A DNA stretch of 64,000 nt, from contig ASNI01000004.1 in NCBI GenBank assembly GCA_000404785.1, forward strand, positions 4,047 through 68,046, read 5' to 3'. The notes below the pieces were generated by a model that did not search any database, was not told the origin of the DNA, and worked only from the letters and a program-made list of their open reading frames with translations. Each line of letters begins with the position of its first letter. The stretch's first letter is position 1. The stretch is from Cloacimonetes bacterium SCGC AAA252-N17. GTDB lineage: Bacteria; Cloacimonadota; Cloacimonadia; JGIOTU-2. A program made the translations under genes and the position numbers. Positions 13,114 to 26,265 of the stretch are shown piece by piece.

Positions 13114-13533
13114 TTAATGAAATCCTTCTTCGCTAAGCTGAATACGTGCAATTGATCTTTTCAACGCTGCTCCTGCACGGCGAAGATCGGTATCCTCTTT
13201 TTTCTCCTGCAAACGTTTCTCTGCCCGTTCCTTTGCGCGCTCAGCTCTGTTTTGATCAATATCTTCAGGACGCTCGATTATTTCAGTAAAAATTCTTACC
13301 TTATCGACATCAACCATCACAAATCCATTCATTAATGAATAAAGATCCGGTTTTTCATTTCTGTAAATTTTCAAAATGCCTGGTCTTACTGATGATATAA
13401 ATGGGGTGTGCCCGATCAATACGCCGAAATCGCCATCTTTTCCGGGAGCAACAAGCTCGCTTACATCATCCTCAATGAAAATGCCCTTAGGCGTGACGAT
13501 CTTCAGATGGAGCAATTGTGAATTATTAGCCAT
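13114..13533 (-). CDS. atpC: F1 ATP synthase epsilon subunit
   Basis: 139 aa. N-terminal beta-sandwich (LHLKIVTPKGIF...) and a C-terminal helical hairpin. It is the last gene of the atp operon. Confidence 0.9.
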   Translation of the reverse strand: MANNSQLLHLKIVTPKGIFIEDDVSELVAPGKDGDFGVLIGHTPFISSVRPGILKIYRNEKPDLYSLMNGFVMVDVDKVRIFTEIIERPEDIDQNRAERAKERAEKRLQEKKEDTDLRRAGAALKRSIARIQLSEEGFH

Positions 13534-13539
13534 TATTTT

Positions 13540-15918
<2,379 letters not shown>

Positions 15919-15919
<1 letters not shown>

Positions 15920-17637
15920 TACTTACTTTCAACTCCCGCTGAAAGAACCTCATCTTCTTCAATTATTTCTTCGACAATAAGCTGGTGCTCGAAAATTTCT
16001 TTTACTTTCTTTGATAATTCGTGAAGCTTTTTCTCGACTTCTTCGGTCACACCTTTGGGTTTGACCAGTTCTTCCTGTAGCTTTTGGTATTCTTTATCCA
16101 TCAGTTCGAAAAGCTCTGTTTGCACATCCTGGATAATATCAACCGGTAGATTATCGAGGTATCCTTCATAGCCCATGAAAATAATTGCGATCTGCTTGGC
16201 TACAGGAATTGGTTTGTACTGTCCCTGTTTTAGGATCTCAACATATCGATATCCGCGATTGAGTTGATCTTGGGTATCTTTATCAAGTTCTGCTCCAAAT
16301 TTTGCGAAAGCTTCCAGTTCTCTGAATTGTGCAAGTTCGATACGAAGTCTCCCTGCAACCTGCTTCATTGCTTTTATCTGTGCATTACCTCCAACCCTGG
16401 AAACCGAAAGACCTGCATTGATCGCAGGACGCACCCCAGAGTAAAACAGCTTTGATTCAAGATATATCTGACCATCCGTAATTGAAATCACATTTGTAGG
16501 AATGTAGGCAGAAATATCGCTTGCCTGGGTTTCAATTATTGGTAACGCAGTGAGTGAACCACCTGTTTCCGGCAGCTTATACAGCTTATACTTATCTTCA
16601 CCCAATTCTTTGAGATCTTTTTTTAGCTCTTCTGCACTCGATTTGATATGCAGCCGATATTCCTTTTTGTTCACGCCTTCTTTTGCACTCTTTTCATTTT
16701 TAGGTATAATAATATAAACTTCTTCAAGTTTAGATGCTCTCTCCAAAAGTCGTGAATGCAGATAGAATACATCTCCCGGATATGCTTCACGTCCGGGAGG
16801 TCTGCGAAGTAGGAGTGAAATCTGGCGATAGGCAACAGCATGTTTGGAAAGGTCATCATAAACGACAAGAACGTGTTTCCCTCTATCGCGGAAATATTCG
16901 CCTATAGTTACACCGGAGTAAGGAGCAATATATTGGATAGCAGCAGGGTCAGATGCAGTTGCAGAAACAATAATAGTATAGTCCAGCGCACCGTGCTCTT
17001 TCAATGCCTTAACGACATGGGCAACCGATGATCTCTTCTGACCAATTGCTACATAGATACAATAGACATTGGTATCTTTTTGATTTATTATCGTATCAAC
17101 TGCAAGGGCTGTCTTTCCTGTTTGTCTGTCACCAATAATTAGTTCGCGCTGCCCGCGACCAATTGGGATCATTGAATCGATCGCTTTCAGCCCGGACTGC
17201 AACGGTTCTTTCACCGGTTGACGGGCAACCACACCGAGCGCTTTTCTTTCAACAGGCATACTCAGCTTTGTTTTGATCGGCTCTTTTCCATCAAGCGGCA
17301 CGCCAAGCGGATTGACCACTCGTCCAAGCATCGCTTCACCAACAGGAACCTGCACGATCTTCTTAGTCCGTTTGACAATATCACCTTCTTTGATCTTATC
17401 GCCCTCTCCAAGAATGATGCATCCGACGTTATCCTCTTCCAGATTCAGTGCCATACCGTATATTTTATCATTGAAAAGGACGAGTTCCGATGCCATGATA
17501 TCCTGCAAACCATACACACGTGCAATGCCGTCACCGACCTCGATAACTCTGCCGACTTCATCAATATCAACTTTATAGTTATACTTTTCAATTTTTTCTT
17601 TGATTATTCTACTGATTTCATCGGGTTGTATTTTCAT
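15919..17637 (-). CDS. atpA: F1 ATP synthase alpha subunit, with a roughly 60-aa charged C-terminal extension
   Basis: P-loop GDRQTGKT, and 572 aa in length. Confidence 0.92.
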
Positions 17638-17666: not shown

Positions 17667-18197
17667 TTAAAACTTCCTTCTCATCGCTTCCAGATTGTTT
17701 CTGACCGATGCATTGATCGCCAGGTTATCATTGTAGGCGAAAAAGCCACCCCTGATGTGCGGATCGATCTTATGCTGAAAAAGTACTTTCCCATCAACAT
17801 ATTTTGAAATAAAAATTTTAATGTTTTCAAGAGTTTTTTCATCAACCTCATGGGCAGTTACAAGTTCAAAATCGAAGATGCCAAGCTTCTGATGTATCTG
17901 TCTGATTATTTCCTTTAGAATGTCTGATATAAAGAAAATTCTTTCCTTCTCGACAAGTACATTCAGAAAATTATGCAGTATATCAGAAGCTTCGAGCTCT
18001 TCAGCAATAAGAGCAATAATCTCCGTTTTATGCTCACCCTCTACAATTGGTGAAACCAAAAATTCTTCAATCTCCGGTTCATCTCTCAGAATGGTTTGCA
18101 AGGCAACGATCTCATTCTCAAAATGTGTTATATCATCCTTCTTAATAAGCTCAAGAATCGCTGATGAGTACCGTCTTGCAATGATATTCTTAATCAA
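17667..18197 (-). CDS. atpH: F1 ATP synthase delta subunit (OSCP)
   Basis: 176 aa and in the expected operon position. N-terminal [16 protein letters not shown], typical of delta subunits. Confidence 0.8.
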
Positions 18198-18690
18198 CAG
18201 ACGACTCCTTTTTGATGCTCTCTTCTTTTATCATATCGTTAATGAGCTTTATATCTTCATCCTCGGTAAGCTTCTTGCCGATTATTTTATCGGTCAGTTC
18301 GACGACGAAATCTCCGATCTGCGATTGAATGCTTTCTTTTGCTTTATTCACTTCGACATCGATCATTTCCTGGGATTCCTGAATGATAAGGTCCCGCTGC
18401 TCTGCTGCATCATGAAGAATTTGCTCACTCTGTATTTTCGCACTCTTTGTTGCTTCATCACGTATATCTCTGGCTTCCTCTTTTGCTTTTCTGAGTAATT
18501 TTTTTTGCTCTTCAAGAATTTTTTCAGATTTGTCTTTATGCTTTTTTGCGCTCTTGAGATCATTACGTATCTGAGATTCTCTTTTTTGAATAAAATCCAT
18601 GAGCGGCTTATATAAGAGCTTTTTCAGGATAATCAGCAAAATAATGAAATTCACGATCACCAGAATAATCGTATAATCAATACTAACCAT
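18190..18690 (-). CDS. atpF: Fo ATP synthase b subunit
   Basis: An N-terminal TM helix is followed by a long charged coiled coil. Its start overlaps atpH. Confidence 0.85.
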   Translation of the reverse strand: MVSIDYTIILVIVNFIILLIILKKLLYKPLMDFIQKRESQIRNDLKSAKKHKDKSEKILEEQKKLLRKAKEEARDIRDEATKSAKIQSEQILHDAAEQRDLIIQESQEMIDVEVNKAKESIQSQIGDFVVELTDKIIGKKLTEDEDIKLINDMIKEESIKKESSVD

Positions 18691-18723: not shown

Positions 18724-18960
18724 TTACACTGCAAAAATAAGTAACAGGGAAATGACCAGTGAATAAATACCTGTTGATTCGGACACTGCCTGACCTACAA
18801 GCATTGTTCTTGTGATAAGTCCCGCATTTTCTGGAGAACGCGCGATGCCTTCGCATGCCTTTCCTGCAGTAAATCCTTCTCCCAAACCAGGTCCTAAAGC
18901 ACCCATACCCATACAAAGTCCTGCTCCTAAAAGAGCAGCTGCTCTAACGATTTCTGACAT
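18724..18960 (-). CDS. atpE: Fo ATP synthase c subunit (single hairpin) with a Na+-binding signature
   Basis: 78 aa. It has [13 protein letters not shown] in helix 1 and [16 protein letters not shown] in helix 2. This ESTxxY motif plus a helix-1 Glu matches the two-carboxylate Na+ site described for Ilyobacter and Fusobacterium c-rings. Confidence 0.88.
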
Positions 18961-18981
18961 TTTTCCTCCTATTAAATATGA

Positions 18982-19713
18982 TTATGCCACAAAAATTAAT
19001 AAAAATGCTATAACTAATGAATATATTGATGTTGATTCTGCAACAGCAGCACCCACAAACATTGTTCTTGTTAATAATGGAGATTGTTTAGGAAATTTAC
19101 TTATTGCTTCAACTGCTTTAGCAGCAACCATACCGATCCCAAGTCCAGGACCAAATGTCCCAAAGCCCATAGATAACGCAGCGCCTACCAATGCAAAGGA
19201 TTTTACTATACTATTCCCAGTAGGTGTAGAATATAATAATATCATAGAAATTACCAACGCAAAAATTGCGGATGTTTGAGATAATGCCTGGCCTATTAAC
19301 ATATTTGCAGTAAGCAAATTGGCTTCTCTGGGTTGTCTGCCTATTCCTTTACAAGTTTGTCCACCCGTGTAGCCATTTCCTAAAGCCGGTCCAAGACTTC
19401 CTAGTCCTACTACTAGTCCGGCACCAAAGAGTGATGCAACCATCTGCCATCCACCATCGGAATTAGTTATACCACCAAATAAAAGTAGCATTGCAACAAC
19501 AAGAGAAAAAATAGCACCAGTTTCGGTAAGTGCTTGCCCAATAAGCATAGTTTTCAATAAACTTTCGCTTGCTTTTGGTTGTTGCATTAATGCTTGGGAA
19601 GTATTTGCAGCAATAAACCCTTCACCAACTCCTGCCCCGATCGACGAGATGCCGACTGCGAGACCTGCGCCGAGATAAGCTGCTACGTGTACTAAGCTAA
19701 AAGTATCAAACAT
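18982..19713 (-). CDS. atpE: Fo ATP synthase c subunit in a triplicated, fused form (three hairpins, six TM helices)
   Basis: 243 aa, made of three tandem roughly 80-aa c-subunit repeats. Each has a GxGxGxAxxKA helix 1, a polar loop (QQPKAS, RQPREA, KFPKQS), and a helix 2. The helix-2 carboxylate is present in hairpin 1 (TETG) and hairpin 3 (AESTSIY), but is replaced by Gln in hairpin 2 (LSQTSAIF). Confidence 0.8.
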   Translation of the reverse strand: MFDTFSLVHVAAYLGAGLAVGISSIGAGVGEGFIAANTSQALMQQPKASESLLKTMLIGQALTETGAIFSLVVAMLLLFGGITNSDGGWQMVASLFGAGLVVGLGSLGPALGNGYTGGQTCKGIGRQPREANLLTANMLIGQALSQTSAIFALVISMILLYSTPTGNSIVKSFALVGAALSMGFGTFGPGLGIGMVAAKAVEAISKFPKQSPLLTRTMFVGAAVAESTSIYSLVIAFLLIFVA

Positions 19714-19718
19714 AAGCG

Positions 19719-20555
19719 TTATTTAATTGCTACTGCGGTATATGACAGCACAAGCATTGTGAACACAAATGCCTGAACTGTTCCGATGAACAGGCCAAAA
19801 AACAGATTAAGACCAACCGGAATGAGAATAAAACGTGTGAGATTAGACACAACAAGGATGATGATCGCTCCGCCGAGAATATTTCCGAAAAGACGGAAGG
19901 AGAGTGAAATTCCTTTTGCGAACTCTCCAACAATATTTATGGGCAACATAAAAGCGATCGGTGCTGCAAACTCCTTGAGATATAGACAAATACCCTTTTC
20001 TTTAATGGCTGAATAATGCACAACAATAAGCGCCATTAATCCAAGTCCAAGCGGAACATTCAAATTTCTGGTTGGTTCAAGATTTCCCGGAATGGGAATC
20101 ATACCTACTATATTACACAGCCAAATAAAAACGAAAATTGTAAAAATATATGGGGTGAAATATTTCTTTTTCTCGCCGACCGTTTCAATTACAAGACTGG
20201 AGAAGAAAGAGTATATCATCTCTGCAACAATTTGTAATTTGCCTGGTATGAGGTGCATTTTACGTCTTACGAGTGCTGCGAATAATATCAGGAAAAGATC
20301 AACGAAAAGAATAACGCGCAGGACACTCCAATTTATGGTAAATTTCCCGAAAAGTTTTACCATATGATAGTGCTGGAATTCGTGATTTATCTGCTCCTGA
20401 ATAGATTTTTTGCTCTCGATTGTCCTGATAATGAGTTTGCCGTTATCAAATCCAATCTGCAACTCATGATTAATTCCAATAGATACAATACCCTCAATGA
20501 TGATAATTGCTAAAATGATGAGAAGAATTTTTTTGGACTTTTTTTTCATATACAA
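19719..20555 (-). CDS. atpB: Fo ATP synthase a subunit
   Basis: Has the conserved a-subunit stator-arginine motif GISLSFRLFGNILGG. Polytopic membrane protein. Confidence 0.88.
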   Translation of the reverse strand: MYMKKKSKKILLIILAIIIIEGIVSIGINHELQIGFDNGKLIIRTIESKKSIQEQINHEFQHYHMVKLFGKFTINWSVLRVILFVDLFLILFAALVRRKMHLIPGKLQIVAEMIYSFFSSLVIETVGEKKKYFTPYIFTIFVFIWLCNIVGMIPIPGNLEPTRNLNVPLGLGLMALIVVHYSAIKEKGICLYLKEFAAPIAFMLPINIVGEFAKGISLSFRLFGNILGGAIIILVVSNLTRFILIPVGLNLFFGLFIGTVQAFVFTMLVLSYTAVAIK

Positions 20556-20564
20556 ATTTTAAGA

Positions 20565-20993
20565 TTATTCAGATTCCTGATTATTTTTTCCAGCAAGAAT
20601 ACCATCGATGAGAACGATAGCTGGAGCGATCAGCAAACCCGCAAGAAGAGAAAAGATATTCACTTCTAAAAATTTCACAAAAACTACTACAAATAAAACC
20701 AATATCAAATAGCGGATATAGAAATTCTTGAAAACGCTTAATTTTGCACCTGAGGGGCTGAGACCCACTCGATTTTCTGCACCCTTTGCCTGAAAATAAA
20801 AATTCAAACTTGAAAGAATTGAGCCAAGAAAATAGCCCAACCAAAGCTTCAAGTTTTGTGTGATAAGCAAAAGAGCCGGAATCTCTGTCAAGAAAATTAT
20901 CCCCAAAATATGGTACACGTACTTACGAAAACTACTTGTCTGAATTTTCATTCTTTTTAATGAGTTGATAGCATGAAATTGCGCCCGAAACAA
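20565..20993 (-). CDS. atpI: ATP synthase protein I (AtpI-like); an alternative start is at 20951
   Basis: About 130-140 aa with four hydrophobic segments, located directly upstream of atpB. Confidence 0.6.
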   Translation of the reverse strand: MFRAQFHAINSLKRMKIQTSSFRKYVYHILGIIFLTEIPALLLITQNLKLWLGYFLGSILSSLNFYFQAKGAENRVGLSPSGAKLSVFKNFYIRYLILVLFVVVFVKFLEVNIFSLLAGLLIAPAIVLIDGILAGKNNQESE

Positions 20994-21168
20994 CTCCGCA
21001 AAAGACCCCGATCATTATTGGAATTCCTCCAAGATGCCACTTTTTATCTATAAACAAACCGATAAAGAAAAATATAAGAATGTTGATCACCATTGTGAGA
21101 CCGAGCTGTGCTACAAGCCCGAGCCCTTCAAAAACCTCCTTATAATAGCCCTTATTCTTCAACGACAT
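20932..21168 (-). CDS. atpZ: AtpZ/AtpI-family small membrane protein
   Basis: 78 aa with two TM helices. It is the first gene of the atp cluster. Confidence 0.55.
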   Translation of the reverse strand: MSLKNKGYYKEVFEGLGLVAQLGLTMVINILIFFFIGLFIDKKWHLGGIPIMIGVFCGVVSGAISCYQLIKKNENSDK

Positions 21169-21173
21169 AGAGT

Positions 21174-21563
21174 TTATTTTTCTTTAGCTTTTTTGGTGCT
21201 TTTGGCAGTTTCGACCTGTTTGACACTACAATTCCCGCTGATCTGTGTTCCCGATTCCATAGTAAGGATCTTGGCAATAATGTCACCATTAATTAGCGCT
21301 GAACTTTTTAGTTCTAATTTTTTTTCTATCGTGATATTCCCCTCAACCTTACCTGAAATTACCGCTTCATTGGATTGAATGTCTGCTTTTACGTTTGCCT
21401 TTTCTCCTATAAGTAAAAAGCCATCGCAGATTATCTTTCCATCTACTTCGCCATCAATACGAACGCCACCTTCAGAATGAATTTCTCCATTGAACTTCGT
21501 ATGTTCTCCAATAATAGTATCCAAGTTATTTTCTCCGTTTTTCACCAAAAACCTCCATCTCAT
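21174..21563 (-). CDS. Bactofilin (polymer-forming cytoskeletal protein, CcmA-like)
   Basis: Has the repetitive beta-helical G-x-I/V pattern (GEIHSEGGVRIDGEVDGKIICDG...ISGKVEGNITIEKKLELKSSALINGDI) and a Lys-rich tail. Confidence 0.75.
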   Translation of the reverse strand: MRWRFLVKNGENNLDTIIGEHTKFNGEIHSEGGVRIDGEVDGKIICDGFLLIGEKANVKADIQSNEAVISGKVEGNITIEKKLELKSSALINGDIIAKILTMESGTQISGNCSVKQVETAKSTKKAKEK

Positions 21564-22216
21564 TTTATTTTTGATTCCGGATCGACATTTTTATTATGAT
21601 ATAAAATTTCAAAGTGCAGATGCGGAGCTGAGCTGATACCCGTGTTTCCCACTTCGGCTATCTGCTCACCTTTGCGCACAAACGTTCCTAACTCAACGTT
21701 TATAAAAGAGTTGTGCCCATATTTTGTTTTATAACCATTCAGGTGATCCAATACAATGATCTTCCCGTAGATATCATCATCAAGATCAATTGATTCAACC
21801 ACTCCGGATGCCGCAGCATAAACTGGCTCACCAACTTTACCCGCAAGGTCAATACCGTAGTGATTTCTCTTTGGCAAATATGGTTTTGTTAGTATCAATT
21901 CAGCAAGAGGGCAGAAATTTGGAATATATTGCTGGTAATTGATAAAATTTTCTGTCGCATCCTCAAGCTCTTTCTCGTGCAAATCAATATTTCCCAAATC
22001 TCTTGAAGGAATTACCGGACTTTTTGTTACTGTGGGCATTGAAGCGATAACATCTTCGAGCTGCTTGACTTTGAGGTCCAAGCCCTGCTTCTCCTGTCTC
22101 AAAATATCGTTCTTTGAAGTCAGATCGTTGATAAGATATAATGATACGACAATATATGACCCGACCACAATAATAATTATTATTGATAGATATACGACTA
22201 ATCTTTTATGTTTCAT
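21560..22216 (-). CDS. M23 family metallopeptidase with an N-terminal TM helix and a coiled coil
   Basis: HxxxD-type motif GIDLAGKVGEPVYAAASGVV…HLHFEI. It overlaps the bactofilin gene start by 4 bp. Confidence 0.8.
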   Translation of the reverse strand: MKHKRLVVYLSIIIIIVVGSYIVVSLYLINDLTSKNDILRQEKQGLDLKVKQLEDVIASMPTVTKSPVIPSRDLGNIDLHEKELEDATENFINYQQYIPNFCPLAELILTKPYLPKRNHYGIDLAGKVGEPVYAAASGVVESIDLDDDIYGKIIVLDHLNGYKTKYGHNSFINVELGTFVRKGEQIAEVGNTGISSAPHLHFEILYHNKNVDPESKIK

Positions 22217-23042
22217 TTTTATAAAGTATCATATTGAGGATCTTTTCAAATTCATCCTCAGAATGGTAATATATTTCAAATTTACCCTTTTTATAGCCCT
22301 TTATTTTCACCCTTGTTCCAAACCTCTTTTCAAGATCATGTTCAAGAGCTACTAAATGAATATCCCTTCTTGCCGGTTTTTTCTCCTTCTTCAGATTCTC
22401 AAACCGCTTTGATAATTCTTCTGCATTGTGTACGGAAATTTCGTGTTTCACAATGTATTTTGCAAAATCTATTTGAAGGGCTGGATCAACCTGTAGAATT
22501 GCGCGTGCATGTCCTGCAGATAGAATATCCTCTTTTATCATTTCGATAATGGAATTTGGTAATTTCAGAATTCTTAATGCATTGGTTATCGTTACACGAC
22601 TTTTGCCGACAATACCAGAAATCTTTTCATGTGTGTATTTGAACTCATCAACAAACCTCTGATATGCCATTGCTTCATCAACGGCATTGAGATTCTCTCT
22701 CTGTATATTTTCCACAAGTGCGAGTGAGAGCATTTCCTGATCTTTTGCTGTTCGGACTATTGCGGGCACTTTTGTGAATCCGGCTATCAGTGCAGCTGTA
22801 ATCCTTCGCTGACCGGCAATCAGTTCATATTTATCTTTTTCTGCTTTTCGAACAACAACCGGCTGAATTATACCGTTTTCAGAAATAGAATCTGCCAGTT
22901 CTTGCAGCTGTTTTTTATTGATGGATTTTCTCGGCTGAAAGGGATTGAAAGAGATATTTTCAATTGCGATCAGCTTTACGCCTGTCTTATCATCTTCATC
23001 AATTTGAACAAGCGCTTCCAAACCTTTTCCAAGTCTACTCAT
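22206..23042 (-). CDS. parB: Chromosome partitioning protein ParB
   Basis: ParB box GQRRITAA and an HTH (SQEMLSLALVENIQRENL). Located downstream of parA. Confidence 0.9.
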   Translation of the reverse strand: MSRLGKGLEALVQIDEDDKTGVKLIAIENISFNPFQPRKSINKKQLQELADSISENGIIQPVVVRKAEKDKYELIAGQRRITAALIAGFTKVPAIVRTAKDQEMLSLALVENIQRENLNAVDEAMAYQRFVDEFKYTHEKISGIVGKSRVTITNALRILKLPNSIIEMIKEDILSAGHARAILQVDPALQIDFAKYIVKHEISVHNAEELSKRFENLKKEKKPARRDIHLVALEHDLEKRFGTRVKIKGYKKGKFEIYYHSEDEFEKILNMILYKNET

Positions 23043-23815
23043 GCAATTTCCTTTCCATCTTTTTTTAATACTTCCAGTGCAAGATGTAAATAATTCTGTG
23101 CTCCTCGCGAGCTTATATCATAGGTCAAGATCGGCTTGCCATAACTCGGCGCTTCACTCAATTTCACATTTCGGTCAATTATTGTATCAAAAACAATATT
23201 CTTAAAATACCTTCGAACTTCTTTTGCAACCTGCTCAGATAATATCGTTCTTCTATCATACATAGTAATAACAATTCCAAAAATGGAAAGATCGGGATTT
23301 AGTTTTCTCTTGATGAGCTGAATTGTTTTAAGTAGGTGCGCGATTCCCTCGAGTGCATAATATTCTGATTGTATCGGAATAAGCAGATCGTTGCTCGCGA
23401 CCATTGCGTTCACAGTCAAAATATTCAGAGAGGGTGGACAATCTATAATAATGTAATCAAATTTTCCATCAATATTTGAAAGCACTCTTTTCAACCGTTG
23501 CTCTTTCTTATCTGCTGTCAGAAGCTCCACTTCACAGCCAATGAGATCTATCGAAGATGGAATGATGCGCAGGTTGGCTATGCTTGTTTCATGTATTGAA
23601 TCATAAACATTTGAATCTCCAAGCAGAAGATCGTATATCTGTCCATCGACAGTATGTTTATCTATTCCAATTCCAGTTGTGCAGTTTGCTTGGGGATCCA
23701 AGTCAACAAGCAGCACTTTTTGTCCATATGATGCCAGTGAAGCAGCCAGATTAATGGCTGTTGTGGTCTTGCCGACCCCGCCTTTCTGGTTCGTGATCGC
23801 GAGTGCTTTAGTCAT
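23039..23815 (-). CDS. parA: Chromosome partitioning ATPase ParA/Soj
   Basis: Deviant Walker A motif KGGVGKTTTAINLA. Confidence 0.92.
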   Translation of the reverse strand: MTKALAITNQKGGVGKTTTAINLAASLASYGQKVLLVDLDPQANCTTGIGIDKHTVDGQIYDLLLGDSNVYDSIHETSIANLRIIPSSIDLIGCEVELLTADKKEQRLKRVLSNIDGKFDYIIIDCPPSLNILTVNAMVASNDLLIPIQSEYYALEGIAHLLKTIQLIKRKLNPDLSIFGIVITMYDRRTILSEQVAKEVRRYFKNIVFDTIIDRNVKLSEAPSYGKPILTYDISSRGAQNYLHLALEVLKKDGKEIA

Positions 23816-24446
23816 GTTTCTTTACTATGATAAAGGCTCTTTTGCCGAGCCCGGAATACTCTTTTCTGATTATTTCTATTTTATCACAATCAGCATAGTA
23901 GTTTATCTTGTCAACTTCATCATTATTAAGAGCAGATTTATACAATATGAGTTTCCCCGAAGGTTTCAGAAGCTCAAATGCCTTCATAAAATATTCGTCA
24001 TTCATTTTTACTGCACGCACAACAATGTAATCAAAACTGCCTTTAATATTATGATCCAATTCTTCGAATCGCGAGTGGATTATATTCGTTTCCGACAGGT
24101 TAAGCTCTTGTTTTATCAATCTAAGAAACAATACTTTTTTTCTGATTGATTCTACACAGTAAAGTTCCATCGTAGGATAAAATATTTTGAGAGGTATACC
24201 CGGGAACCCACCACCGCTTCCAAAATCCAGAACTCGAGAATTGCTAAAATCAAGAAAATCAGTAATAAGAATTGAATCAAGAAAATGTGTGAGCCAGATA
24301 TTTTCAAGAGATCTTTCTGAAACCAGATTTATTTTTTTGTTTCTTTCTCGTAGGATTTTTTCATACAAAACAAACAAGTTGTAAGCACCGTCTGGAATGC
24401 AGTGATTTTTCAGAAAATTATACAACTGTTTTGAATTATTTTGCAT
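23808..24446 (-). CDS. rsmG: 16S rRNA m7G527 methyltransferase RsmG (GidB)
   Basis: SAM-binding motif DFGSGGGFPGIPL. Located downstream of mnmG. Confidence 0.88.
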   Translation of the reverse strand: MQNNSKQLYNFLKNHCIPDGAYNLFVLYEKILRERNKKINLVSERSLENIWLTHFLDSILITDFLDFSNSRVLDFGSGGGFPGIPLKIFYPTMELYCVESIRKKVLFLRLIKQELNLSETNIIHSRFEELDHNIKGSFDYIVVRAVKMNDEYFMKAFELLKPSGKLILYKSALNNDEVDKINYYADCDKIEIIRKEYSGLGKRAFIIVKKHD

Positions 24447-26265
24447 CGAGGGTCTTTAATTTTATTAGAAGTGCAGACACATCGGCAAAAGTTACACCTG
24501 GAATTCGCGCTGCCTGTCCCACAGAAAGAGGTTTGACTTTTGTGAGCTTTTCTCTTGCTTCATAGGAAATAGTTTCAAATTCCATATAGTTGAAATCTGC
24601 TGGAATTGATTTATTCTCAAGATAATTAAATCGTTCAATTTCCTGCTTCTGGCGTTTGATGTAACCCTCATATTTTACTTCAAGAGATATTTTATCCTTG
24701 ATCAGATCAGTTACACCCTTTTCAATTTTGTATCCAAACCTAACCAGATCATCATAAGCAATTTTAGGTCTTCGGAGAATATCAATCATTTTGTATGCTT
24801 TGTCTGAATCCGTTTTTGCATTGGTCTTTTGTAATTTTTTTATTTCTCTAATTTTGATTGTTAATGCTTCAGTAAATTTCTTATATCTTGCTGTATCAAT
24901 CAGTCCCAATTTGTACCCCAAAGGCATAAGGCGTTCATCGGCGTTATCCTGTCGTAGGTGAAGGCGATATTCTGCACGTGCAGTGAACATTCGATAGGGC
25001 TCATCTACTCCTTTTGTGACGAGGTCATCTATCAGCACTCCAATATAGGAATTATCTCTATGCATAACTATCGGTTCTTTTTTCATCACATAATTCACAG
25101 CATTGATACCTGCGATTATACCCTGTGCTGCGGCTTCTTCGTAACCGGAAGTGCCGTTTATCTGACCTGCAAAAAAAAGCCCTTTTATCAACTTTGTTTC
25201 CAGACTATATTGAATATATTCAGTTGGAATACAGTCATACTCGATTGCATATCCATAACGCATTAGTTTAGCATTTTTAAGACCTTCAACAGAATGGATC
25301 ATATCCATTTGAACCTGCGGAGGAAAGCTTGTAGGCAGTCCGTTAGCATACATCTCGAAGGTATTAAGTCCTTCTGGCTCTATAAAAACTTGATGCCTGT
25401 CCTTCTCCGGAAATTTCTTTATCTTATCTTCAATCGAGGGACAATACCGCGCACCAATTCCAGTGATATTTCCGCTGTATAATGAAGATTCTGTCATATG
25501 ATCCGCTATTATCTTGTGCGTTCTTTTATTTGTATAGGTGAGAAAACAGCTTACATAATTCTTTGGCTCAATATCAGTATAATAAGAAAATTTTGGCGGT
25601 GGTTCATCGGGTTTTTGTTCTTCCAGTTTTGCATAATCAAGTGAGCGAGAATCAAGGCGTGCAGGAGTTCCGGTTTTGAATCTTACCAATGGGAAACCAT
25701 GCTCTTTCAAAGAATCTGAAAGTTTTAAAGAAGCAAATTCGCCTGCTCTTCCTGCAGAATATTTATTCTTGCCAATATGAATTGTTCCATTGAGAAAAGT
25801 ACCCGCAGCAATGATCACGGTTTTCCCAAAATATTTTTGTCCATACTGTGTCTTAACTCCTTTTATCTGCCTTTTTTCAACAATGAGTTCTTCAACGAGT
25901 GATTCTTTTATCTCCAGATTTTCCTGATGTTCCACGACAGAACGCATTTCCATCTGATATTTCATTCTATCTGCTTGCGCACGGGGTGCCCACACAGCGG
26001 GACCTTTGCTCTTATTAAGCATCCGAAAATGTATCCCAGTTCTATCTATGACCTGTCCAATTGCACCACCAAGTGCATCAACTTCACGCGTAAGATGTCC
26101 TTTTGCCAAACCTCCCACCGCTGGATTGCATGACATACGTCCTATCGTTTCGAGTTTTATCACGAACATTAGTGTATCGGCACCCATTTGGGCAGCTGCC
26201 AGTGCAGCTTCACAGCCGGCATGGCCAGCGCCAACAACGATCACATCATAGATTTTGGAATGCAT
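24436..26265 (-). CDS. mnmG: tRNA uridine-5-carboxymethylaminomethyl synthesis enzyme MnmG (GidA)
   Basis: FAD-binding motif VIVVGAGHAGCEAA, and the 609-aa length fits MnmG. Confidence 0.92.
   Translation of the reverse strand: MHSKIYDVIVVGAGHAGCEAALAAAQMGADTLMFVIKLETIGRMSCNPAVGGLAKGHLTREVDALGGAIGQVIDRTGIHFRMLNKSKGPAVWAPRAQADRMKYQMEMRSVVEHQENLEIKESLVEELIVEKRQIKGVKTQYGQKYFGKTVIIAAGTFLNGTIHIGKNKYSAGRAGEFASLKLSDSLKEHGFPLVRFKTGTPARLDSRSLDYAKLEEQKPDEPPPKFSYYTDIEPKNYVSCFLTYTNKRTHKIIADHMTESSLYSGNITGIGARYCPSIEDKIKKFPEKDRHQVFIEPEGLNTFEMYANGLPTSFPPQVQMDMIHSVEGLKNAKLMRYGYAIEYDCIPTEYIQYSLETKLIKGLFFAGQINGTSGYEEAAAQGIIAGINAVNYVMKKEPIVMHRDNSYIGVLIDDLVTKGVDEPYRMFTARAEYRLHLRQDNADERLMPLGYKLGLIDTARYKKFTEALTIKIREIKKLQKTNAKTDSDKAYKMIDILRRPKIAYDDLVRFGYKIEKGVTDLIKDKISLEVKYEGYIKRQKQEIERFNYLENKSIPADFNYMEFETISYEAREKLTKVKPLSVGQAARIPGVTFADVSALLIKLKTLDAK

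Follow-up and report, generated by a model that had tools for sequence, protein, structure and literature searches.

The 64,000-nucleotide stretch of contig ASNI01000004.1 from Cloacimonetes bacterium SCGC AAA252-N17 analysed here (hereafter the window) contains an F-type ATP synthase operon in which two different genes encode the c subunit of the rotor ring. The first encodes c3, a protein made of three fused hairpins, and the second a single-hairpin c that displays the residues of a Na+ site. We propose that the two proteins belong to a Na+-coupled F-type rotor of the Cloacimonadota, whose ring would be composed of many single c and of one or few c3 and would carry fewer ions per turn; we give this reading a probability of roughly 0.68. 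The features on which it is based are the following:

18982-19713, minus strand: c3, triple-hairpin c subunit of 243 amino acids with six transmembrane helices (three Pfam ATP-synt_C matches)
19468-19713, minus strand: hairpin 1 of c3, residues 1-82 (alignment and key-residue extraction)
19222-19467, minus strand: hairpin 2 of c3, residues 83-164, with the codon of Q146 at 19276-19278 (alignment and key-residue extraction)
18982-19221, minus strand: hairpin 3 of c3, residues 165-243, with the codon of E226 at 19036-19038 (alignment and key-residue extraction)
18724-18960, minus strand: single-hairpin c of 78 amino acids (one Pfam ATP-synt_C match and PDB matches)
18965-18970, minus strand: Shine-Dalgarno sequence AGGAGG, 4 nucleotides upstream of the ATG of c (sequence inspection)

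A conserved c subunit with three hairpins

The subunit c3 is encoded by one intact open reading frame (ORF) of 243 amino acids that displays three matches with the family ATP-synt_C (PF00137; total E-value 1.8e-46). A scan of one genome per species detected 21 loci, all from Cloacimonadota. An intact three-hairpin ORF of 240-250 amino acids is present in 19 of these species genomes; of the two remaining loci, one is truncated at a contig end and the other one (L021) is split into two ORFs. In 20 of the 21 loci, the single-hairpin c with the residues EVESTY is located immediately downstream of c3. Metagenomes contributed 87 further three-hairpin homologues (238-256 amino acids, 52-94% identity). 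The triple-hairpin c subunit announced in the original prediction is thus a real and conserved protein, with the same fusion in its orthologues.

In the alignment of 88 sequences, the best conserved hairpin is hairpin 2, the one that has no carboxylate (77% mean column identity). Its loop, RQP in the window, contains an invariant R-x-P motif. As predicted, the carboxylate of the C-terminal helix is lost in this middle hairpin, where Gln146 occupies the position held by E64 in hairpin 1 and by E226 in hairpin 3. A model of c3 obtained with AlphaFold2 from the alignment of homologues displays six long helices, with a mean predicted local distance difference test (pLDDT) of 94.2 and a predicted template-modelling score (pTM) of 0.88. 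The closest solved structure is the c1 subunit of Acetobacterium woodii (4bem_J), with a TM-score of 0.84 normalised to the length of 4bem_J and a root-mean-square deviation of 1.5 Å. This match leaves one of the three hairpins uncovered, and the full set of six helices is matched by no chain of the PDB.

We give practically no credit to the explanation that frameshifts or assembly errors joined three atpE genes, or that c3 is a decaying pseudogene. The observation in its favour comes from one related metagenome-assembled genome (MAG), "Candidatus Cloacimonas sp. 4484_140" (L021, 632-1182), where the c3 homologue is split into two overlapping ORFs. This case is the sole one among the 21 loci and probably corresponds itself to a frameshift or to an assembly error. 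Against an artefact, 19 assemblies independent of one another and 87 clusters from metagenomes all contain this ORF without interruption, its short linkers being the same. The three hairpins of c3 are mutually only 30-42% identical and consequently cannot be collapsed tandem copies. Together with the strong conservation, that of the hairpins included, and the confident structure prediction, these observations refute it.

Predicted ion sites of the single c and of c3

The residues of the ion sites were read with a hairpin hidden Markov model at the positions 32, 63, 65, 66, 67 and 70 of the Ilyobacter tartaricus c subunit, the c subunits of I. tartaricus, Fusobacterium nucleatum and A. woodii serving as references. 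At these positions, the single c displays E-V-E-S-T-Y (E28, V59, E61, S62, T63 and Y66), and the hairpins 1, 2 and 3 of c3 display E-L-E-T-G-F, N-L-Q-T-S-F and I-V-E-S-T-Y, respectively. All the motifs initially quoted for the two proteins (TETGAIF, SQTSAIF, AESTSIY and AVSESTGIY) are present in the alignment with the three references. The single c matches ATP-synt_C in Pfam with an E-value of 1.1e-17, its carboxylate being E61, and it matches the PDB entries 3zk1 (1.4e-21) and 1yce (5.8e-21) with the motif columns aligned. It contains the full two-carboxylate set of the F. nucleatum Na+ ring, namely Glu32, Val63 by its backbone, Glu65, Ser/Thr66, Thr67 and Tyr70 (PMC3692424). The two-carboxylate Na+ signature that had been attributed to this protein is therefore found again, and it is of the F. 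nucleatum type.

Published structures place the ion sites between hairpins. In I. tartaricus, Gln32 and Glu65 are provided by a subunit A, and the Val63 carbonyl, Ser66 and Tyr70 by a subunit B (PMC2359735; PMC3692424). In the fused K subunit of Enterococcus hirae, Leu61, Thr64 and Tyr68, which belong to hairpin 1 by their residue numbers, are combined with Gln110 and Glu139 of hairpin 2 (PMC2359735). The residues 63, 66, 67 and 70 of a hairpin i consequently serve the carboxylate of the hairpin i+1. Among 119 multi-hairpin homologues, Tyr70 occurs in an internal hairpin only where the next hairpin has both E/Q32 and E65 (15 cases) and is found in none of the 255 other pairs (Fisher p = 2e-21, from counts that ignore shared ancestry). 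The same rule is visible in proteins with five and six hairpins, e.g. EVESAF SMQTPF SVQTPF NVQSTY EVESTY, where the fourth hairpin (NVQSTY), although dead, has kept S-T-Y for the site of the live fifth one. The reverse arrangement, in which the donor residues would come from the following hairpin, was rejected. Hairpins with the full E/Q32 and E65 acceptors are followed by a Tyr70 hairpin in only 8 of 77 cases (odds ratio 0.07), an association inverse to the one expected from this arrangement, which also conflicts with the description of the E. hirae structure (PMC2359735).

When this rule is applied to c3, its residues point to three different kinds of sites. Site 1, which would associate E31 and E64 of hairpin 1 with the V-S-T-Y of a preceding c or of a c3 hairpin 3, is a predicted full two-carboxylate site. 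Site 2, where N113 and Q146 would face the hairpin 1 donors L62, T65, G66 and F69, is predicted to be dead, as no carboxylate is present. Site 3, composed of I193 and E226 with the hairpin 2 donors L144, T147, S148 and F151, is a putative minimal site with a lone carboxylate. The presence of Phe and Gly at the donor positions of hairpin 1 is explained by the fact that this hairpin faces the dead site 2. The idea that the Tyr to Phe replacement weakens the own site of hairpin 1 did not survive, since in interfacial sites (PMC3692424; PMC2359735) the Phe and Gly changes concern the site of hairpin 2, which is dead.

Hairpin 3 has kept its AESTSIY motif, as first described, but not an intact site of its own. 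Its donors V224, S227, T228 and Y231 face the site of the next subunit, and its E226 is surrounded by Ile193 and Phe151. The Ile at the Gln/Glu32 position, in helix 1 of this hairpin, had been overlooked in the first reading. Site 3 does not have the full set of Na+ ligands, as Ile193 replaces Gln/Glu32 and Phe151, in the donor hairpin, replaces Tyr70. According to published criteria, H+ alone is expected to bind where one of the Na+ ligands is missing (PMC2359735), and site 3 probably carries only H+ or stays protonated. Several lineages of Cloacimonadota have Gln at the third carboxylate position too (IVQSTY), which indicates that this carboxylate is dispensable in some relatives. Ile193, located at the position of I. 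tartaricus Gln32, is presumably aligned with Ile28 of Escherichia coli. Kaim et al. reportedly found in 1997 that the exchange Q32I in the c subunit of Propionigenium modestum led to the loss of Na+ coupling, the H+ and Li+ coupling being kept.

It could be argued from these features that the enzyme is coupled to H+, or promiscuous, despite its Na+-like motif, the two-carboxylate sites and the Ile193/Glu226 site both carrying protons in vivo. Na+ enzymes move H+ when Na+ is low (PMC2359735), the hairpin 3 site is devoid of the full Na+ ligands, and a promiscuous archaeal enzyme is known from work cited in PMC9408878. We regard this explanation as improbable, considering that both the single c and the hairpin 1 site possess all the Na+-coordinating residues of F. 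nucleatum, that the phylum is modelled with a Na+ cycling based on Rnf, and that close relatives come from saline habitats.

A probable ring made of two kinds of subunits

A mixed ring of c3 and c is likely in view of the genes. The motif [V/I]-S-T-Y is conserved in the last hairpin of 41 out of 41 homologues whose own hairpin 1 has no carboxylate, whereas Tyr is found in none of the 165 internal hairpins that face a dead site. This pattern requires a live E32/E65 hairpin, i.e. that of the single c, as the next one in the ring. A Shine-Dalgarno sequence of the GGAG type precedes c in the 18 Cloacimonadota loci that were compared (18/18). The c3 gene has none in the window and in close relatives, and starts 5 nucleotides past the stop codon of subunit a. 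This asymmetry of the ribosome-binding sites suggests that many c and few c3 would be made. In A. woodii, the ring contains nine single-hairpin c and one two-hairpin c1 with one site (PMC9171764). Conserved last-hairpin donors, a ribosome-binding site on c only, a shared operon and the A. woodii precedent, where an operon with two c genes builds a 9:1 mixed ring, are the reasons for which we infer that c3 and c share a ring. The hetero-oligomeric c-ring of the original prediction is the best reading. The gene structure, the motifs, the conservation, the interface covariation and the operon context are observed directly, and the co-assembly, the stoichiometry, the ion specificity and the physiological direction of the enzyme are inferred.

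In such a ring, each c3 would introduce three hairpins with one full Na+ site, one ion-free site and one minimal carboxylate site, and the V-S-T-Y of its last hairpin would complete the Na+ site of the next single c. A ring composed of k c3 and m c would contain 3k+m hairpins, with m+k full, k minimal and k dead sites. Fewer coupling ions would be used per turn, and hence per 3 ATP, than in a single-hairpin ring with an equal number of hairpins, and the effect would be a gear change as in the F/V hybrid rotor of A. woodii. The rings of I. tartaricus, F. nucleatum and A. woodii contain 11 hairpins. For an assumed ring of 11 hairpins with one c3, 9-10 ions would be carried per turn, i.e. 3.0-3.3 ions per ATP versus 3.7, and additional c3 would lower this value further.

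Several points weigh against this proposal. Hairpin 1 is live in the c3 of the window, so that the argument of the last-hairpin donors reaches the window only by homology, and the counts of interface covariation take no account of shared ancestry. The argument of the ribosome-binding sites is indirect, and the distant relatives L017 and L019 do have a Shine-Dalgarno sequence before c3. In a Cloacimonadota locus from the Guaymas Basin (L014, 2390-4786), a c3 of the E-Q-Q type is followed after 145 nucleotides by alpha, and c, b and delta are missing between them. This locus may have been misassembled, or it may truly depart from the pairing of c3 and c; in the second case, c3 can be encoded without an adjacent c. 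The Na+ specificity is predicted from a motif and, for all the members of the family, the co-assembly, the copy number and the ring size are deduced from gene-level evidence.

The two genes could also serve alternative homo-oligomeric rings, (c3)n and c(m), giving two enzyme populations with different gear ratios. The V-S-T-Y of the last c3 hairpin indeed fits E31/E64 of its own hairpin 1, and a ring made only of c3 would possess complete sites between hairpin 3 and hairpin 1. We judge this arrangement unlikely. Only 21 nucleotides separate the two genes, which lie in the same operon and show no sign of being regulated separately, and A. woodii, the sole characterised case in which an F-type operon has two kinds of c genes, forms a mixed ring. 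Moreover, the strict conservation of the last-hairpin donors in the 41 relatives with a dead hairpin 1 would make no sense in a homo-oligomer.

The subunit c3 has larger relatives. Those of about 323, 405 and 482 amino acids, which contain 4, 5 and 6 hairpins, respectively, are abundant, the named sources being Desulfarculus, Desulfobacteraceae, Desulfosarcina variabilis ("AtpE4"), Desulfatibacillaceae and Thermodesulfobacteriota. With the five-hairpin protein P0005 as query, 1973 homologues were recovered at E<=1e-20. A search of 1.84 billion cluster representatives gave 1519 matches at E<=1e-3, of which 85 at E<=1e-30. The multi-hairpin relatives are found in operons of the type atpZ-atpI-a-cN-c-b-b', single c included. 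Such operons with a c subunit of 4 or 5 hairpins are present at L022 (8001-9218), L023 and L024 (8001-8972 in both), the named homologues of their proteins being from Desulfobacterota. The triple hairpin, initially considered as unusual, is so with respect to the characterised enzymes but not in the databases, where it is the norm for F-type Cloacimonadota and where relatives with 4-6 hairpins are common in Desulfobacterota. No description of an F-type c subunit with at least three hairpins was found in the full-text literature searched, an earlier mention in the hybrid-rotor literature being possible. Four remote matches, P0270 (1139 amino acids), P0271 (968), P0343 (784) and P0315 (631), contain 14, 12, 10 and 8 near-identical hairpins, respectively, each with a Glu; they may represent whole rings as single proteins, like the 13-hairpin subunit of Methanopyrus kandleri.

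The number of carboxylates decreases to one per six hairpins in this family, e.g. in EVESAF SIQTPF SIQTPF SVQTPF GVQTPF NVQSTY, and simple models of torque generation can hardly account for the resulting five consecutive ion-free hairpins. Besides this variation, a sliding-window analysis of DNA identity revealed a recombinant patch in the operon:

about 18850-19700, strand not applicable: recombinant tract, foreign to the rest of the operon, that spans the whole of c3 and continues into c over its 5' half (sliding-window DNA identity)

In this tract, the DNA identity with the nearest relative (L005, JAUWPE010000029, a Cloacimonadota MAG) is 62-79%, versus 94-100% in the flanks. With the distant L002, it is 78-97% in the tract versus 37-75% in the flanks. 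At the protein level, the rest of the operon is 90-99% identical to L005 and c3 only 77%. The closest c3 proteins are those of Ca. Celaenobacter antarcticus (L001, 94%) and of L002 (86%), although the alpha and delta subunits of L002 are only 74% and 51% identical to those of the window. At L006, the c protein is identical to that of the window and c3, of the E-E-E type, is 78% identical, which indicates that breakpoints can also fall between c3 and c. Judging from these identities, the c3-c rotor cassette appears to have been exchanged between lineages of Cloacimonadota, that of the window coming from a distant one. A second divergent patch is observed in the N-terminal part of subunit a (20380-20545), with 74-84% DNA identity to all close relatives.

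These observations bear on another role of c3, that of a keystone, exactly one c3 per ring nucleating or closing the assembly as argued for A. woodii c1; the shift of the ion/ATP ratio (about 3.0-3.3 versus 3.7 in an 11-hairpin ring) would then be a small by-product. The position of c3, 5 nucleotides after the stop of subunit a, itself present once per complex, suits this role, as do the Shine-Dalgarno sequence lacking before c3 and present as AGGAGG before c, the assembly factors AtpI and AtpZ, and the 9:1 ratio of A. woodii. The carboxylates per fused subunit nevertheless vary widely among relatives (E-E-E, E-Q-E, Q-Q-E, E-Q-Q, down to one in six hairpins) and the c3-c cassette has been exchanged between lineages, which together look like a tuning of the number of sites rather than a fixed structural role. 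We therefore consider the keystone doubtful as the main function of c3, even though it is not exclusive of gearing, both ideas being mutually compatible.

More tentatively than for the mixed Na+ ring itself, these proteins may define a large and undescribed class of "geared" F-type rotors. In this class, one ring would mix full Na+ sites, ion-free sites and H+-only sites, the number of live sites would be evolvable, and swaps of c3-c would reset this number. If this is true, Na+ and H+ would together drive the motor, and its rotation would include arcs devoid of ions. The dial of live sites would extend from three in three hairpins to one in six (in Desulfobacterota relatives), with donors kept only before a live acceptor, and would be reset in nature by cassette swaps between lineages, as in the window. 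The number of ion sites of the c-ring fixes the ion/ATP ratio, which decides whether ATP can be made near the thermodynamic limit. An adaptation to low-energy anaerobic metabolism, as originally suggested, is plausible. The only type of F-type hybrid rotor studied so far is that of A. woodii, to which Clostridium aceticum is similar. Here, an uncultured phylum that is important in anaerobic digesters and anoxic waters carries a three-hairpin version whose sites would exist in three different states. The same design, with 3-6 hairpins, is common among lineages of sulfate reducers, including the named species D. variabilis, and is thus directly testable. The rule of donors only before a live site would also provide a count of the functional sites of any fused c subunit from its sequence alone.

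The operon and the known rotors

The operon is complete and its order, atpZ-I-a-c3-c-b-delta-alpha-gamma-beta-epsilon, is the canonical one of F-type enzymes (ORFs and Pfam). Besides c3 and c, it contains the following genes:

20932-21168, minus strand: atpZ, 78 amino acids, first gene of the operon (Pfam PF09527 ATPase_gene1, E-value 3.5e-10)
20565-20993, minus strand: atpI, 142 amino acids as listed, with an uncertain TTG start (Pfam PF03899 ATP-synt_I, E-value 1e-8)
19719-20555, minus strand: Fo subunit a, 278 amino acids (Pfam PF00119, E-value 2e-48)
18190-18690, minus strand: Fo subunit b (PF00430)
17667-18197, minus strand: F1 delta (OSCP) (PF00213)
15919-17637, minus strand: F1 alpha, 572 amino acids (Pfam and PDB alignment)
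15053-15919, minus strand: F1 gamma (ORF and operon position)
13540-15072, minus strand: F1 beta, 510 amino acids (Pfam)
13114-13533, minus strand: F1 epsilon, 139 amino acids (ORF, position and sequence)

AtpZ and AtpI, which the original prediction had placed in this operon, are both recognised by their Pfam families. The content of the operon rules out an N-ATPase or an A/V-type enzyme, AtpQ/AtpR and the N-ATPase gene order being absent. No Na+ pump genes were found in the part of the window scanned with Pfam (up to about 34.5 kb). The Cloacimonadota encode Rnf and have been modelled with a Na+ cycle and an F-type, presumed Na+-dependent ATP synthase (PMC8542988; PMC12590816), and the c subunits go unmentioned in these two genome papers.

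Other subunits display peculiarities. The subunit a of the window (278 amino acids) is about 55 amino acids longer than the Desulfobacterota a subunits of L022 and L023. The alpha subunit contains a Lys/Glu-rich insertion of 51 amino acids (residues 307-357; 16567-16719), located between "ERASKLEE" and "TGGSLTALP", which is missing from every solved alpha subunit and also from the alpha of L014 (509 amino acids). The alpha of the window ends with an acidic tail of about 23 amino acids (15922-15990). The beta subunit is extended by a Lys/Glu-rich tail of about 45 amino acids past the normal C-terminal domain (13543-13677). Upstream of the operon, on the same strand, the region 21174-26265 contains five sizeable ORFs. 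Judged by their sequence, four of them look like M23 peptidase, ParB, ParA and MnmG/GidA, a gene set typical of the region close to the chromosome origin.

Among the known rotors, the c11 ring of F. nucleatum (PDB 3ZK1) shares with the single c the residues Glu32, Val63, Glu65, Ser66, Thr67 and Tyr70, and with hairpin 1 of c3 the acceptor half of the site. The F. nucleatum ring is however a homo-oligomer of single hairpins without a fused subunit, whereas the window encodes the fused c3. The hairpin 3 site of c3 resembles the H+ site of E. coli (Ile28/Asp61), with an Ile and a lone carboxylate. Contrary to E. coli, this minimal site would share its ring with full Na+ sites, and no description of a natural ring mixing full Na+ sites with E. 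coli-type sites was found in the literature searched.

In Methanocaldococcus jannaschii, the triplicated proteolipid retains no more than two carboxylates. Like c3, this protein is made of three fused hairpins and has fewer carboxylates than hairpins. The principle of a multiplication of hairpins with loss of Na+ ligands is common to c3 and to the multi-hairpin c/K subunits of A/V-type enzymes, with 2, 3 or 13 hairpins (PMC2359735; PMC9171764). In the same reviews, the F-type c is a single hairpin and the forms with 2, 3 and 13 hairpins belong to A/V-type enzymes. The fused subunits of archaeal A1Ao/V-type enzymes form rings without a single-hairpin partner, whereas the operon of the window is F-type and encodes a single c beside c3. 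The class of the archaeal triplicated A-type proteolipids was discarded for these two reasons.

The closest known system is the F/V-hybrid rotor of A. woodii (PDB 4BEM), in which c1, with two hairpins and one site, is associated with the single-hairpin c2/c3; the arrangement is the same in C. aceticum. As in the operons of such hybrids, one F-type operon encodes a single-hairpin c together with a multi-hairpin c from which a carboxylate has been lost. Both systems have an F-type Na+ operon with the fused c gene directly upstream of a single-hairpin c with a Na+ motif. A. woodii c1 is the best sequence match of c3 (E-value 9.9e-27) and shares with it a Glu in hairpin 1, a Gln in hairpin 2 and the replacement of Tyr by Phe in hairpin 1. 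Despite this end-to-end alignment, a common fusion event is supported neither by the identities nor by the hairpin tree. The hairpins of c3 are old (30-42% mutual identity), whereas in A. woodii the two hairpins of c1 display 57-71% identity when compared with c2 or with one another. In a neighbour-joining tree of hairpins (about 75 columns, no support values), the hairpins of A. woodii c1 cluster with c2 of the same species, and the first, middle and last hairpins of the proteins with 3, 4 and 5 hairpins group by position. According to this topology, the fused proteins would form one old family, which would have arisen independently of the c1 duplication in A. woodii. Finally, c3 differs from c1 by three hairpins instead of two and by the third hairpin itself, whose carboxylate in Ile32/Phe70' surroundings is absent in A. 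woodii, and the predicted live sites of the window are two-carboxylate sites with Glu32, where A. woodii has Gln32.

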